A stretch of 18,255 nt of DNA, from UHGV virus genome UHGV-0073224. The stretch is one strand, 5' to 3'. The notes beneath the pieces are model-generated. The model ran no database searches and was not told where the DNA came from. It saw only the letters and a program-made list of their open reading frames with translations. The DNA comes from a virus. Made by a program: the position numbers and the translations under genes. Below are positions 3,357 through 15,786 of this stretch, in pieces; within the stretch, counting starts at the first letter, position 1; the number at the start of each line of letters is the position of its first letter.

Positions 3357-3435
3357 GAATATCTCCTTCGTTACCGATTAATTCTTTCATCTGACGAATG
3401 AATTCTTCGTCTGACCAGTTATCTGTAAAACTCAT
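3277..3435 (-). CDS. small acidic ORF overlapping the kil stop
   Basis: Not on track (52 aa: MSFTDNWSDEEFIRQMKELIGNEGD...). Its ATG overlaps the kil stop (ATGA) but has no clear RBS; overlaps 3186..3356 in another frame, so only one may be real. Confidence 0.3.
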   Translation of the reverse strand: MSFTDNWSDEEFIRQMKELIGNEGDIHVTCNHSEGEQVTETHVHAESSLVSP

Positions 3436-3584
3436 TTCCTGCGATACCACGGAAGGTTGATAGCTGATTTCATCGCTTTATTTGCTTCAAGCCACATTTT
3501 TGAATCACCAATAAATCTGGCTATTACTGCTTTGTTCTGTGCAGCACGAAGCATCTGGTGATTGATGGCTATTTCATTGCGCAT
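3432..3584 (-). CDS. kil: Kil-like host cell-division inhibitor
   Basis: Not on track (50 aa: MRNEIAINHQMLRAAQNKAVIARFIGDSKMWLEANKAMKSAINLPWYRRK). The IA.FIGD.KM motif and position directly after cIII match recalled lambda Kil. Confidence 0.6.
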   Translation of the reverse strand: MRNEIAINHQMLRAAQNKAVIARFIGDSKMWLEANKAMKSAINLPWYRRK

Positions 3585-3700
3585 AATAAGACCTCAACTC
3601 TTTTCCATCCGTCACGTAATTTACGGGTGATTCGTTCAAGTAAAGATTCATTTAATTGGAAGGCACCCATGCGAGCGCCTCCCGCGATTGCGTAAATCAT
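3569..3700 (-). CDS. cIII: CIII-like FtsH (HflB) inhibitor
   Basis: Not on track (43 aa: MIYAIAGGARMGAFQLNESLLERITRKLRDGWKRVEVLLCAMK). Core ESLLERITRKLRDGWKR matches recalled lambda CIII; AAGGAA RBS; overlaps the kil start. Confidence 0.7.
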   Translation of the reverse strand: MIYAIAGGARMGAFQLNESLLERITRKLRDGWKRVEVLLCAMK

Positions 3701-3724: not shown

Positions 3725-4693
3725 TTAGTAGGTTATTTTTGTTGCGAATACTTCGCCTTTTACGATGGCTGTTATGATATTTTTAGCAACATCTTCTGAT
3801 GCACCAACCTTGATAAGGTCAGCAAGTATTTTGTTATTTACTTCTTTCCGGTGAGCTTTATCCTTTGCTCTACGCTCTTCTTCGTCCTTGATTCTTTTTT
3901 CTTCTGCTATTCTGGCTTGCTCTTTTGCTTCAGCCTCGCGCCGGATTCGTTCAGCCTCCTCCTGTGCTTTTCGGCGTTCTGCTTCAATTGCCGCCTGCTT
4001 TTCTCTTTCAGCTCGTTCTGCTGCCTCTTTTGCTTCGCGCTGTGCTCGTTGCTCGGCTTCAATGCGTTCACGCTCTGCACGTTCCGCTGCGGCCTTAGCT
4101 TCTGCTTCTCGCCTTGCTGCTGCTTCAATTTCGGCTTTTGCCTTTGCTTCGGCTTCTGCTCTGGCTTTCTCTTCAGCTTCTCTTTTTAAGCGTTCTTCAT
4201 GCTCTCGCTTTTCCTGCTCCGCTTTGAGTCTTGCCTCTTCTCTTTGGCGGTCAAATTCGCGATCCATCAAAATAGCTATTTCATGGTCAGACTCAATTTG
4301 CTTTGCGAGAGCTTCAGCTGCTGCCTTAGCTTCTTCTTCGGCTTTAATCCGCGCCTGTTCTTCCTCATAATCAGTAAGAGGCTGGCGCGCCTTGGCTTTC
4401 AGCTCATCAAGGCGATCACGCACTGTCTTGCGGTTGGCATCAATTAGCTTTGGAATTTCCTTCAGTTCAGCAACAAGGTCTTTGCCAAGACCATCGAGAT
4501 ATGTTTTCGTCTGCGCAACTTTATACGCCAGAGAAGCGATCTCCTTTCTGCCCTTTGCCGTTGTGATATCAGGCACAAAGGACATAACTTCACGTTCAAC
4601 CTTTTGAAGGATTTCTTCAATCTGGTCGGCAGACTGAAATACAGTCATTGCATTTGCTTTTTCAATAACAACTAAATCTGTTACTTCACTCAT
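3725..4693 (-). CDS. coiled-coil protein with long Glu/Ala/Lys/Arg-rich low-complexity central region
   Basis: Track ORF 3725..4747 begins at a TTG; ATG (MSEVTDLVV) at 4693 has a GGAGGATAT RBS. Central section is EAEAKAKAEIEAAARREAEAKAAAERAERE...; globular N- and C-terminal ends. Confidence 0.6.
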   Translation of the reverse strand: MSEVTDLVVIEKANAMTVFQSADQIEEILQKVEREVMSFVPDITTAKGRKEIASLAYKVAQTKTYLDGLGKDLVAELKEIPKLIDANRKTVRDRLDELKAKARQPLTDYEEEQARIKAEEEAKAAAEALAKQIESDHEIAILMDREFDRQREEARLKAEQEKREHEERLKREAEEKARAEAEAKAKAEIEAAARREAEAKAAAERAERERIEAEQRAQREAKEAAERAEREKQAAIEAERRKAQEEAERIRREAEAKEQARIAEEKRIKDEEERRAKDKAHRKEVNNKILADLIKVGASEDVAKNIITAIVKGEVFATKITY

Positions 4694-4705
4694 ATATCCT
4701 CCGTC

Positions 4706-4734
4706 AAAAAAATTGCCCTCACACTGGAGGGCAA
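4706..4734 (-). terminator. intrinsic terminator-like hairpin (minus strand) just upstream of the coiled-coil gene
   Basis: Plus-strand TTGCCCTC-ACACTG-GAGGGCAA gives an 8-bp stem; on the minus strand it is followed by a 7-T run. Confidence 0.5.
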
Positions 4735-4825
4735 AGAAGATTTCCAATAATCAGAACAAGTCGGCTCCTGTTTAGTTACGAGCGACATTGCTCACATAGC
4801 AGACTCGCAAATCTGCTATAGGTGC

Positions 4826-4987
4826 TTATTCGCATCGCATGACAACATCAAATTTTTCGAGATTACTTTGTCGCAACAATCCCTCTTCTACGCGGTCAGC
4901 TTTTCTATAATTATCAAATTCGAAATGTTTAATTACTTCTTTCGTTTCTCGCTCTATAACTTCAACAATGTATTTCTTATTCATCAT
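4826..4987 (-). CDS. small hypothetical protein (53 aa)
   Basis: Track ORF 4826..5050; internal start MMNKKYIVEV... at 4987 overlaps the stop of the upstream paralog gene (ATGA). Confidence 0.4.
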   Translation of the reverse strand: MMNKKYIVEVIERETKEVIKHFEFDNYRKADRVEEGLLRQSNLEKFDVVMRCE

Positions 4988-5262
4988 TCTTCCCCCAGGG
5001 CCTTGCTGATGGCTGCCTTGGCTCGTTTGTATTCGGTTAACTCTCTGCACCCTTCGTCATGCTCGTAAAGGAAGACAAGCTCTTGCAGTGCTTCAAGCAA
5101 ATCAGGAGCTGCTGCTATCAGTAGCGCATCCTCCCTTTCATTTCTTGTTGCTGCTTCAATGTATGTGTCACCAATCGTCACACCATGGAACGTAGTCATC
5201 ATCTCGTTGACGTTTCTAACCGTGTACTTCCATTTACCAGGCGTACCCTTAAACTCTTTCAT
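4984..5262 (-). CDS. small protein, paralog A of a duplicated family (conserved AAPDLLEALQ...ISKALGEE C-terminus)
   Basis: Track ORF 4984..5268 begins at a GTG; ATG (MKEFKGTPGKW) at 5262 has a GAGGTGG RBS. C-terminal half is shared with ORF 5783..6034. Confidence 0.55.
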   Translation of the reverse strand: MKEFKGTPGKWKYTVRNVNEMMTTFHGVTIGDTYIEAATRNEREDALLIAAAPDLLEALQELVFLYEHDEGCRELTEYKRAKAAISKALGEE

Positions 5263-5280
5263 ATCCACCTCTGTTGTTTA

Positions 5281-5310
5281 TGCCAAAAATAAAGGCCGAC
5301 TATGCGGCCT
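5281..5310 (-). terminator. intrinsic terminator (minus strand), copy 1 of a duplicated element
   Basis: Stem AGGCCG/CGGCCT with 6-nt loop (5293..5310), followed on the minus strand by TTTATTTTTGG; directly after the stop of ORF 5309..5779. The 32-bp block 5279..5310 is identical to 6053..6084. Confidence 0.55.
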
Positions 5311-5779
5311 AGTAGAATACCCAATTTTCTGTTTCTTGGTTGTGTCCAAAGTTATATTCAATATCTGGTGTTGATGTATCAATATTCTTCATCCCATCAA
5401 CAAGAGTTGATACAACAGCCAAATCTTGTTTGATTCTCATCAAATGGTATTTCTTCCGGCGCAATAAACTTTCAATGGCAAGTTTCTTCGTCGGGAACGC
5501 AAAAGATCTTTCTGCATTTTTTGCTACTTTCTTAATTGCATATCTATTTCTCCTTTGTTTCCATTCCTGTAACCACTGATTTGGTGCTGGTTTAAAATTA
5601 ACAATCCAATGCGCAGGAACCAACCATGCATAATGCTCTGTCTGATGAAAAGCTATATATTGAAGTGCGAATATTTTGATTCCATCTTCTTCAACTGTCG
5701 CTTGGAATCTCCAGAAAACAGGCATTCCATCATGTTCAGTTTCTGATTCAGGAAAAGGTACGCTCCATGATTTTGTCAT
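5309..5779 (-). CDS. hypothetical protein (156 aa), second gene of a two-gene module
   Basis: Track ORF; GGAG upstream; start 4 nt after the stop of paralog B; terminator hairpin directly after its stop. No motif I recognise. Confidence 0.55.
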   Translation of the reverse strand: MTKSWSVPFPESETEHDGMPVFWRFQATVEEDGIKIFALQYIAFHQTEHYAWLVPAHWIVNFKPAPNQWLQEWKQRRNRYAIKKVAKNAERSFAFPTKKLAIESLLRRKKYHLMRIKQDLAVVSTLVDGMKNIDTSTPDIEYNFGHNQETENWVFY

Positions 5780-5782
5780 ATA

Positions 5783-6034
5783 TTACTCATCTCCAAGGGC
5801 TTTGCTGATTGCTGACTGTGCTTTCGATACTTCATCAGGATAATGGTCATTCCAGTTTTGCTTGTATGCCTTGTTTAGCATCGCTTGCAGGGCTTCGAGC
5901 AAATCAGGAGCTGCCTCCATCAATCTCACATCACCTCGATGGATGGTTGTATCGTCAAACGTGAAATAAACCCCATCATCGTTAAATCCAGCGCCAACAA
6001 CATTCCATGGCCTTTTCATTCTTCCTACTGTCAT
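5783..6034 (-). CDS. small protein, paralog B of the duplicated family
   Basis: Track ORF 83 aa (MTVGRMKRPWNVV...); GAGGTG RBS; shares EAAPDLLEALQ and ISKALGDE with paralog A. Confidence 0.55.
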   Translation of the reverse strand: MTVGRMKRPWNVVGAGFNDDGVYFTFDDTTIHRGDVRLMEAAPDLLEALQAMLNKAYKQNWNDHYPDEVSKAQSAISKALGDE

Positions 6035-6054
6035 TATTCACCTCTGTGTATTTA

Positions 6055-6084
6055 TGCCAAAAATAAAGGCCGACTATGCGGCCT
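6055..6084 (-). terminator. intrinsic terminator (minus strand), copy 2 of the duplicated element
   Basis: Same hairpin and T-run as 5281..5310; sits just after the stop of the membrane-protein gene. Confidence 0.55.
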
Positions 6085-6088
6085 GAAA

Positions 6089-6538
6089 TTACTTAACCAA
6101 TGATGCTGCATATTCGATAAGGTAAAGCTTTGGGGCCAGCCAAATTTTTAACCAAGTCATATTGGTTACTACACCAATAATAAAAATCCCCCACAGAGTC
6201 AAAACTACAACCAATGGCATGATAAGAAGATTAATATCACCTTTGCTATCCCAAACCATTGTCGGCCTGTATTTGGGATTTCCTTTCTCCCATGAATATC
6301 CTTCATCACCGATTTTACCTGTCTCAACTCTTTGGCACTGCTTCTTCATAAACCAGAAAACCAGTGGGATTGTTAAAATGGCCATTAATGTTTTAATCAG
6401 ACTGTCAACCATATTCCATAGCAGCAACTGATGAACAACATCAGGAATCTGTGCCTGGCTGAATGAAACAGCCGCGTCTATTCCATTACTGGCTTTTTGC
6501 AGTAGTTCTACGAGAATCTTGTTTGCTTGTTCTTCCAT
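6089..6538 (-). CDS. two-TM inner-membrane protein, possibly superinfection exclusion (SieB-like by position)
   Basis: Track ORF 6089..6589 begins at a TTG; ATG (MEEQANKIL) at 6538 has a GAGGTTAGAT RBS. Hydrophobic segments LIKTLMAILTIPLVFWF and INLLIMPLVVVLTLWGIFIIGVV. Position matches lambda sieB; no sequence confirmation. Confidence 0.5.
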   Translation of the reverse strand: MEEQANKILVELLQKASNGIDAAVSFSQAQIPDVVHQLLLWNMVDSLIKTLMAILTIPLVFWFMKKQCQRVETGKIGDEGYSWEKGNPKYRPTMVWDSKGDINLLIMPLVVVLTLWGIFIIGVVTNMTWLKIWLAPKLYLIEYAASLVK

Positions 6539-6546
6539 ATCTAACC

Positions 6547-6711
6547 TCAAATAAGTGGTTTGCTGCGAAAATAAATACGTTCCCACCAAGTTCCGTATCT
6601 ATCTATCCAGTTACACCAATCATCGACATTCCATTTTGTTGTGTCGCATTTTGGCAACTGGCATGAATATCCACCTTCTTTGTAAAGTCGGCGTTTGACT
6701 TTCTTGAGCAT
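6547..6711 (-). CDS. small Cys/Trp-rich protein immediately downstream of N
   Basis: Not on track (54 aa: MLKKVKRRLYKEGGYSCQLPKCDTTKWNVDDWCNWIDRYGTWWERIYFRSKPLI). GAGGTGAGCC RBS overlaps the N stop; its stop lies 8 nt before the membrane-protein ATG. Confidence 0.4.
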   Translation of the reverse strand: MLKKVKRRLYKEGGYSCQLPKCDTTKWNVDDWCNWIDRYGTWWERIYFRSKPLI

Positions 6712-6719
6712 GGCTCACC

Positions 6720-7052
6720 TCAATCGTAATAAGCTGGAATTGATTTTCCGCGTTGCTTCTGGCGGCCTGAGCAAGTCACACCCATTTCACTGCGTGGCTT
6801 GCTGTACCATGTGCGCTGATTCTTGCGCTCAATACGTTGCAGGTTGCTTTCAATCTGTTCGTGGTATTCAGCTAGCACCGTAAGGTCTATAGGATTCAGT
6901 GCGCTTTCTACTCGTGATTTCGGTTTGCGATTCAGCGAGAGAATAGGGCGGTTAACTGGTTTTGCGCTTACCCCAACCAACAGGGGATTTGCTGCTTTCC
7001 ATTGAGCCTGTTTCTCTGCGCGACGTTCGCGGCGGCGTGTTTGTGCATCCAT
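6720..7052 (-). CDS. N: N transcription antiterminator (lambda type)
   Basis: Track ORF 110 aa beginning MDAQTRRRERRAEKQAQWKAANPLLVGVSAKPVNRPILSL..., matching recalled lambda N including the Arg-rich boxB-binding motif. Confidence 0.92.
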   Translation of the reverse strand: MDAQTRRRERRAEKQAQWKAANPLLVGVSAKPVNRPILSLNRKPKSRVESALNPIDLTVLAEYHEQIESNLQRIERKNQRTWYSKPRSEMGVTCSGRQKQRGKSIPAYYD

Positions 7053-7320
7053 CTGGATTCTCCTGTCAGTTAGCTTTGGTGGTGTGGTGGCTGGTAGTCT
7101 AGCTCCAGCTTGTTGAGTCTCATTCGGAGGGGTATAACCGGCACCCCAGCGATTTTTCCATGCGACAACGTGCGCGTTATGGCGGCCTTATCGCCCGCGG
7201 CTCCCCATCTCGTCCACGCTATTGCTAGCGTTGGGAGCGCTTCACCGCTCAACAGTAGGTAAGCACTTGCCAGTGACTAGCTGGCTTCACCACACCCCAA
7301 AGCCTTCTGCTTTGAATGCT

Positions 7321-7351
7321 GCCCTTCTTCAGGGCTTAATTTTTAAGAGCA
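7321..7351 (-). promoter_or_regulatory. nutL: nutL site (boxB hairpin plus boxA-like element)
   Basis: Minus-strand GCCCTGAAGAAGGGC at 7321..7335 (lambda nutL boxB) with ...GCTCTTAAAAATTAA upstream at about 7343..7351. Confidence 0.75.
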
Positions 7352-7513: not shown

Positions 7514-8866
<1,353 letters not shown>

Positions 8867-15630: not shown

Positions 15631-15705
15631 GGGTCAGTCGTATAAAGGTCATTACGGAAGGCTGTTAACCTTCTTATCGTGGTTCGAGTCCACGCTGTCC
15701 CGCCA
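15631..15705 (+). tRNA. tRNA-like gene, anticodon GUU (Asn) by manual fold
   Basis: Acceptor GGGTCAG/CTGTCCC, anticodon arm GAAGG-CTGTTAA-CCTTC, T-arm CGTGG-TTCGAGT-CCACG, 3' GCCA. D-arm is non-canonical (3-4 bp stem). Confidence 0.5.
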
Positions 15706-15710
15706 AACAT

Positions 15711-15786
15711 GCTGGTTTAGCTCCAATGGTAGAGCGGTCGCCTTGTAAGTGAATAGGTAGCGGTTCAAATCCGTTAACCGGCACCA
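15711..15786 (+). tRNA. tRNA-like gene, possibly Thr (UGU); anticodon stem imperfect, possible pseudo-tRNA
   Basis: Acceptor GCTGGTT/AACCGGC, D-arm GCTC-CAATGGTA-GAGC, T-arm AGCGG-TTCAAAT-CCGTT, 3' ACCA. Expected anticodon stem GTCGC/GTGAA does not pair; loop CTTGTAA. Confidence 0.4.

Follow-up and report, generated by a model that had tools for sequence, protein, structure and literature searches.

A repeated predicted terminator and two probably stacked accessory-gene cassettes in the early-left operon of the virus genome UHGV-0073224

The stretch of DNA analysed here, 18,255 nucleotides of the virus genome UHGV-0073224 (the window), comes from a lambdoid prophage and represents its early region; the early-left (pL) operon carries two copies of a direct repeat on the minus strand. 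Each copy leads into a small gene of the family PF27050 followed by a tightly coupled partner, p83 with p156 and p92 with p53 (named after their lengths in amino acids, aa; Table 1). Very probably, the two repeats are copies of one lambdoid sequence composed of a terminator, a leader and a ribosome binding site (RBS), which bounds a cargo slot of the pL operon on the left; in this slot the cassettes p83+p156 and p92+p53 are stacked. Stacks of this kind are rare, but the cassette type is known and the tandem is an ordinary product of phage mosaicism. As counterparts, the slot would have the ral-ea10 intergenic region in lambda and, in P22, the segment from ral through orf78-orf87 to gene 17. 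Its right edge would be a conserved noncoding tail of approximately 130 nt, running from GCGAATAAGCAC to a second terminator, and its contents may vary from phage to phage between zero and several small accessory genes, the commonest first gene being of the PF27050 type and translationally coupled to one of many unrelated partners.

The direct repeat is exact over 34 nt, two more than the 32 bp given by an earlier reading of this DNA from its letters alone (the sequence-only reading), and with up to three mismatches just these two copies occur in the window, compared to 0.00 expected from 200 shuffles. On the minus strand, the similarity between the copies extends past the RBS to the ATG, covering about 50 nt with one indel and two mismatches, which bears out the proposed near-repeat of about 47 bp with its minus-strand hairpin, GAGGTG RBS and gene start. 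The transcribed strand of both copies reads AGGCCGcatagtCGGCCT-TTATTTTT, and beyond the hairpin they stay alike over GGCATAAA, a short leader and GAGGTG. One minus-strand terminator-like site was called per copy (6084-6067 and 5310-5293), consisting of the stem AGGCCG/CGGCCT with six pairs (five of them G-C), a 6-nt loop and the tail TTATTTTT, and the hairpin is also present in RNA minimum-free-energy folds. It is placed 7 nt 3' of the TM149 stop codon in copy B and overlaps the p156 stop codon in copy A. With a GC-rich stem-loop and an immediate U-tract on the transcribed strand, 3' of a stop codon, both repeat copies are predicted intrinsic terminators.

The 34-mer is found in 139 phage records and at least 120 IMG/VR contigs, normally once in each. 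We classified 124 copies by their flanks, the IMG/VR part consisting of exact 34-mer matches, and among the matches listed these sites fall into 10 upstream and 12 downstream classes that occur in 30 combinations. Downstream of the 34-mer, 63 of the 124 sites, again among the matches listed, have an empty lambda-like tail, about 43 a PF27050 gene and 12 a p156 gene after a 40-nt leader, with other small open reading frames (ORFs) at the rest; upstream, TM149 is the commonest gene (47/124 sites). At the right edge, GAATAA(A/G)CAC stands behind at least 10 different gene ends, and what separates filled from empty sites is an insertion placed precisely between AACAGA and ATAA(A/G)CAC. The same short sequence thus flanks different contents on both sides, as in a boundary-sequence mosaic module. 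Judged by its distribution, the 34-mer is a widespread lambdoid terminator/gene-start sequence and not a private duplication. The proposal that the repeats delimit variable cargo exchanged by recombination is supported, as one 34-mer joins 10 upstream to 12 downstream classes, and the phenomenon has already been described as boundary-sequence mosaicism: passages of earlier work describe how homologous recombination among lambdoid phages is focused on short, conserved boundary sequences (Susskind and Botstein; Clark et al., 2001; as cited in PMC3029335 and PMC2327257). As in that description, short conserved noncoding or junctional stretches, common to a subset of related phages, flank swappable modules. 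The window differs in that its joints are also intragenic (the AAPDLLEALQ codons) and located at a stop-start overlap, and in that one joint occurs twice in the same genome.

Several points weigh against this interpretation. The terminator stem has just six base pairs and is degenerate in the lambda copy, where the flanking bases are nonetheless conserved; therefore, terminator function alone cannot account for the conservation. Recombination at the joints is deduced from the mosaic pattern, and the class frequencies, among the matches listed, are biased because the IMG/VR sample was chosen by exact match to the 34-mer. Besides, family, fold and literature matches that could point to a function of the cassette proteins were sought, and none was found.

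The slot can be traced in both lambda and P22. In lambda, the ral stop codon is directly followed by GGCCTTTATTTTTGGCATAAATAACAGAATAAACAC and then by the same tail and terminator before ea10; in full, the order is ral stop, GCTGCCTGATAGTGGCCTTTATTTTTGGCATAAATAACAGAATAAACAC, a perfect hairpin, GAGCAATGTCGCTCGTAACTAAACAGGAGCCGACTTGTTCTGATTATTGGAAATCTTCTTTGCCCTCCAGTGTGAGGGCGATTTTTT and ea10. The window repeat aligns to the left part of this interval and positions 4700-4833 align almost base-for-base to its right part, and therefore genes are inserted in the window between AACAGA and ATAA(A/G)CAC relative to lambda. Both have the near-identical left edge GGCCTTTATTTTTGGCATAAA.AACAGA, a tail of about 100 nt with the terminator TTGCCCTCCAGTGTGAGGGC and a T-run at the right, and an N-antiterminated pL operon with the same nutL. 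Lambda departs from the window in three respects: the slot is empty, the left hairpin is degenerate, and the stem of the tail hairpin differs in sequence. We take the ral-ea10 region to be the site of members of the tL2 cluster of lambda, a terminator cluster that Luk and Szybalski reportedly placed between bet and ral in 1983. The order in P22 is ral, TTTTGGCAGCAAGCCACAGAGGTGAATATG, orf78, the ATGA-overlapping orf87 (DUF551, 4.8e-21), GCGAATAAGCAC together with the hairpin of the window, and gene 17; orf78 and orf87 date from the original sequence of the PL operon. P22 and the window have in common the PF27050 family, the place of the cassette within the pL operon, the GAGGTGAATATG leader, a small partner coupled by ATGA, and GCGAATAAGCAC with its hairpin. 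However, P22 has one cassette with a degenerate upstream sequence lacking the GC hairpin and a DUF551 partner, whereas the window has two cassettes, intact predicted terminators and the partners p156 and p53. Based on the homology to orf78 and the same layout, the window cassette is of the P22 orf78-orf87 type, present twice.

The tandem form with two terminators and two paralogs was found only in the window, in the truncated identical locus L122 and in the 41-kb metagenome scaffold L127, and a search of 50,697 phage records and 5,426 complete E. coli genomes gave none in which 80% of positions 4700-6720 is covered. Each half of the arrangement is found on its own: p83 and p92 are each 99-100% identical to single-copy genes in other phages, the order terminator-p83-p156-tail is seen in L006, L128, L129 and L132, and the order p156-terminator-p92-partner in L001, L032, L083 and L100. 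The stack most probably stems from homologous recombination of two different phages, as these separate arrangements suggest; a crossover inside p156, or at the shared terminator, between two phages with a single cassette each would yield the arrangement of the window. Apart from the terminator-RBS sequence, the codons for AAPDLLEALQ, the stop-start overlap after AISKALGxE and the tail may also serve phage recombinases as joints.

The sequence-only reading had described the two small proteins as paralogs with divergent N-termini and a shared C-terminal block, and p92 and p83 are indeed 47% identical across the C-terminal 51 residues (E=2e-11). Each protein matches PHROG 1273 from end to end (p92 7.9e-24, p83 4.6e-18) and aligns with P22 orf78 by BLASTP (p92 43% identity, E=4e-9; p83 32% identity, E=6e-9). 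The assignment to PF27050 comes from precomputed annotations, which exist for the exact p83 sequence, for the 92-aa gene of L127 and for all close homologs; our own Pfam scan came back empty for the paralogs since the scanned set was without the PF27050 model. The motifs (A)APDLLEAL and C-terminal A-I-x-K-A-x-G are invariant columns in our alignments A2 and A4 and are found in distant representatives as well. As the conserved blocks of p83 and p92 differ at synonymous sites, they are conserved as protein and not just as DNA. The claimed tight coupling to ORFs of 53 and 156 aa holds, with p53 overlapping the p92 stop codon by ATGA and p156 starting 3 nt past the p83 stop codon. An AlphaFold model of p92 (predicted local distance difference test score, pLDDT, 72.7) consists of a three-stranded beta-meander and a helical hairpin, without a match in the PDB at E<=0.001, and all of its matches in BFVD are uncharacterised phage proteins. 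The model of p156 is poor (pLDDT 60), and a PDB search with it gave no fold match and is uninformative; the p156 family is small, restricted to Enterobacterales and without a domain. Searches with PADLOC, Pfam, NCBIfam and PDB returned nothing significant for p83, p156, p92 and p53, and over all proteins of the interval the only significant matches were N36 (N) and DUF5484 (p54). The statement that none of the four proteins is recognisable needs correction, as the curated Pfam family to which the paralogs belong takes its name from P22 orf78, where the cassette has the same layout and place; no family of known function was matched. We also checked for the combination of a characterised family and core-gene partners, and this was not found.

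PF27050 (Phage_P22_Y8K6) is a very large family, with 14,117 cluster representatives at E<=1e-3 in a profile search (clusters at 50% identity). Nearly all are single proteins of 85-115 aa that stand alone, next to a few tandem fusions. None of the database searches returned a named or characterised member, the profile search for distant homologs with a name or a fusion gave only 'hypothetical' proteins, a Pfam scan found no fused domains in longer representatives, and literature searches on PF27050, P22 orf78 and lambda tL2/ral gave nothing usable. The genes are tripartite mosaics of a swappable N-terminal domain, AAPDLLEALQ, an unrelated middle of variable length and AISKALGxE, and intragenic chimeras are common in the databases (e.g. 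P0011, P0026, P0090, P0183). In P0011 and P0026, the N-terminal domain of p92 is joined to the middle segment of p83, in P0183 the C-terminal half of p92 stands behind another N-terminal domain, and several database proteins are 100% identical to p92 across just 59% of its length. P0194, P0241 and P0261 contain two complete PF27050 units fused within one polypeptide, so duplication of the PF27050 unit recurs in other lineages.

For the partners, we tallied 40 PF27050 genes in the fetched loci. The p53 type follows 13 of them, a 62-aa MKVKITAS type seven, a 67-70-aa MMCEFYEADI type six and a 42-aa type four; p156 and a 35-aa type follow three each, DUF551 two and a second 62-aa type one, and one gene is without a partner. 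The postulated conserved small protein with a variable partner is therefore confirmed by eight unrelated partner classes, and these combine freely with six N-terminal types and six middle segments found among the PF27050 genes. Genes for the exact p83 protein are followed by p156 in some loci, by a 62-aa ORF in others and by no partner in yet others. Conversely, p156 is mostly found without a PF27050 gene upstream (12 sites directly after the terminator and 18 upstream of the terminator, among the matches listed) and is widespread in Shiga toxin (Stx) phages such as H-19B. Matches in H-19B and other Stx phages had been considered as copies of the 53+92 pair, and this was rejected, as tblastn and query coordinates show that they cover p156 and the tail.

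The position between N and cIII that had been given for the cassettes is correct, and the operon around them is of the N-antiterminated lambdoid type: the N gene and a nutL composed of boxA and boxB both lie upstream of them on the minus strand. Over the aligned leader, the window is near-identical to the pL-nutL sequence of lambda, and the same boxB is annotated as Nutl in lambda J02459. A cI-like repressor would hold pL off in the lysogen. After induction, transcripts made without N would end at the first terminator, 3' of N, p54 and TM149, while N acting at the lambda-type nutL would allow RNA polymerase to pass both terminator copies and the tail terminator, so that both cassettes would be delayed-early, N-dependent lytic genes. 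As a separate observation, two different N-type antiterminator genes are present in the early-left operon of mEp213 (L002, 3283-3555 and 4708-5040), with a p92-p53 cassette between them, and likewise in one early-left operon of L004 (3756-4118 and 4121-4393).

Table 1. Features of the early-left operon of the window and of the repressor gene, in their order along the minus strand.
Feature	Position	Strand	Remarks
cI-like repressor	7915-8547	-	
nutL of the early-left operon	7321..7351	-	boxA TGCTCTTAA, then boxB GCCCTGAAGAAGGGC at 7321-7335
N antiterminator, lambda type	6720..7052	-	Pfam N36 1.6e-26; PHROG 271
54-aa DUF5484 protein (p54)	6547..6711	-	Pfam PF17583 at 1e-10
149-aa hydrophobic protein (TM149)	6089..6538	-	PHROG 3054
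Predicted terminator repeat, copy B	6051..6084	-	probable left boundary sequence; hairpin 6067-6084 and U-tract
Conserved leader TACACAGAGGTGAATA with RBS of the 83-aa gene	6035..6050	-	same leader in L006, L122, L029, L081
p83, 83-aa paralog	5783..6034	-	PF27050 / PHROG 1273
p156, 156-aa protein	5309..5779	-	PHROG 1636; basic, isoelectric point 9.1; TAG stop overlaps start of repeat A
Predicted terminator repeat, copy A	5277..5310	-	hairpin 5293-5310 and U-tract
Conserved leader CAACAGAGGTGGAT with RBS of the 92-aa gene	5263..5276	-	from alignment of the copies
p92, 92-aa paralog	4984..5262	-	PF27050 / PHROG 1273
p53, 53-aa partner	4826..4987	-	PHROG 6949; last two codons and stop inside right boundary GCGAATAAGCAC
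Right boundary, conserved noncoding tail	4700..4833	-	perfect hairpin 4795-4821; second predicted intrinsic terminator 4713-4734
323-aa coiled-coil-rich protein	3725..4696	-	next operon gene after the tail; PHROG 1376
cIII	3569-3700	-	after the 323-aa gene
kil	3432-3584	-	after the 323-aa gene

The tail begins with GCGAATAAGCAC, is about 130 nt long and common to lambda (ral-ea10) and P22 (orf87-17), with a folding z-score of -3.2. Its first hairpin (4795-4821, minus strand) has counterparts in lambda (L125, 1215-1250) and P22 (L135, ~2340-2370), and the stem exists in three unrelated versions, all fully paired and within the same conserved flanks: TGTGTATTCA...TGAATACACG, TATAGCAGA...TCTGCTATG and TAATGACCA...TGGTCATT. 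Possible roles of this hairpin are those of a processing site, of a small RNA or of a palindrome to which a protein binds. The following ~94 nt (4700-4793) end in the terminator TTGCCCTCCAGTGTGAGGGCAA with a T-run. With positions 4700-6720 as query, 2258 of the 5426 complete E. coli genomes match, most of them at 4700-4793, where identity is 96-100% among the matches listed and the spread is far wider than that of any neighbouring gene. At the other end, GCGAATAAGCAC (window 4826-4833; L135 ~2374-2385) includes the last two codons and the stop codon of the preceding partner, which ends in ...CE* in p53 and ...SE* in DUF551-type partners; several otherwise unrelated partners end in LPEPPSE, as if the gene ends belonged to the recombining joint. 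An Rfam scan of 4600-7300 gave no RNA family at gathering threshold or E<=1. The prophage small RNAs of the AgvB, AsxR and Pas family were considered and rejected, as they are located near the Q/lysis genes and their Rfam models are without a match here.

With regard to other explanations, the sequence-only reading had likened the pairs to toxin-antitoxin modules. That p83+p156 and p92+p53 each form a toxin-antitoxin or abortive-infection module, in which the conserved small protein neutralises a variable toxin, is extremely unlikely. Four small uncharacterised proteins, acidic p83 and p92 next to a basic p156, and two small genes coupled by an ATGA overlap or a 3-nt gap do recall a type II toxin-antitoxin system. 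Yet the pairs are without a promoter of their own that we could find, without a significant match in PADLOC, Pfam, NCBIfam or PDB, and without co-inheritance, given eight partner classes, a p156 that mostly lacks the paralog and a p83 that also occurs without p156. Reassorted partners, the missing toxin or defence family and the lack of a usable promoter are evidence against cognate pairs. Moreover, the cassettes would be silent in the lysogen because no promoter was found and they lie behind predicted terminators in a repressor-controlled, N-dependent operon, so that their presumable expression would be confined to the lytic phase; the suggestion is therefore not upheld. That the cassettes are morons, autonomous promoter-gene-terminator insertions expressed from the prophage, we regard as very unlikely. 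A terminator does sit at the module edge, empty and filled sites differ by the precise insertion between AACAGA and ATAA(A/G)CAC, and a promoter-like TTGGCA-16-AATAAT (10/12 matches) lies within repeat B (6060-6033, minus strand). However, the terminator stands upstream of each cassette and not downstream, and a consensus scan, which may miss weak or non-canonical promoters, found no sigma-70-like promoter serving either cassette. Chance probably accounts for the site in repeat B: the -10 element shares bases with the p83 ATG, so that a transcript from it would be without the start codon, repeat A is without this -10 element, and promoter-like sites are below chance expectation (2 found vs 6.6 expected). 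The layout of a moron, with its own promoter upstream and a terminator downstream, is thus not what we see. An origin of the tandem by duplication of one terminator-gene unit within the lineage, followed by divergence, would fit the direct flanking repeats, the paralogous genes and the two-unit fusions P0194, P0241 and P0261. It is nevertheless quite unlikely, as a repeat with 100% identity stands beside genes that share 47% identity in just half their length, near-identical single-copy orthologs of each gene exist elsewhere with other neighbours, and the p156-terminator-p92 junction (L001) and the terminator-p83-p156 junction (L006/L128) occur separately.

A further explanation concerns the noncoding parts. 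The repeat and the tail may owe their conservation mainly to a function as RNA or DNA, for instance in RNA processing, as a small RNA or as a palindrome bound by a protein, and not to one as terminator or joint. The conserved bases around the degenerate stem in lambda, the folding z-score of the tail, its presence in most of the 2258 E. coli genomes with a match (out of 5426), and the three unrelated, perfectly paired stem versions of the first tail hairpin are in line with this explanation. Since frequent recombinational spread also explains the conservation, and neither Rfam (gathering threshold or E<=1) nor the literature searches gave a match, we consider it unlikely. Compatible with a cargo slot bounded by recombining joints, and possible though tentative, is the explanation that the PF27050 proteins, and perhaps their partners, are early anti-defence or host-takeover factors, with specificity set by the reassorted N-terminal domain and the tip of the helical hairpin. 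The interval holds ral (restriction alleviation) in both lambda and P22 and, in P22, gene 17, which according to its record note allows growth on a Fels2 lysogen; the proteins would be early and confined to lytic growth; AAPDLLEALQ and AISKALGxE are conserved around unrelated middles, next to swappable N-terminal domains; and the family is very large, with its 14,117 cluster representatives. On the other hand, the searches gave no sequence, fold or literature link to any anti-defence protein, and the same variability would be expected if accessory genes under weak constraint lay at a hot spot of recombination. For the anti-defence half of the comparison drawn by the sequence-only reading, the one argument is positional, and the suggestion is not supported. 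By analogy with ral in the same interval of lambda and P22, the four proteins may, with low confidence, be dispensable accessory proteins for host interaction or anti-defence. A more far-reaching idea, which we regard as doubtful, is that PF27050 proteins make up a very large class, so far overlooked, of modular proteins that phages produce early; in them, a conserved two-helix clasp (AAPDLLEALQ packed against AISKALGxE) would display a swappable N-terminal beta-domain and a hairpin tip that bind variable targets of host defence or rival phages; recombination at the joints would then generate new specificities, and stacked paralogs would broaden the range.

Elsewhere in the window, two adjacent tRNA genes (15631-15702 and 15711-15783, plus strand; Rfam tRNA, 55 bits each) are located in the late region upstream of the lysis genes. 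Two adjacent long ORFs on the minus strand (50-1117 and 1114-1713) have related N-terminal halves and helical, coiled-coil-like stretches; they presumably resemble Ea22-type proteins, and the end segment of ORF 50-1117, which looks HNH/AP2-like, we take to be an unconfirmed candidate.

Taken together, a striking repeat is clarified as textbook lambdoid mosaicism, with unusually clean joints that are traceable to lambda and P22. A slot with defined left and right edges and an empty state could provide the frame for a catalogue of early accessory genes from thousands of prophages. Its PF27050 family comprises about 14,000 clusters, with a member in P22 and members in many E. coli prophages, to which no function has been assigned.

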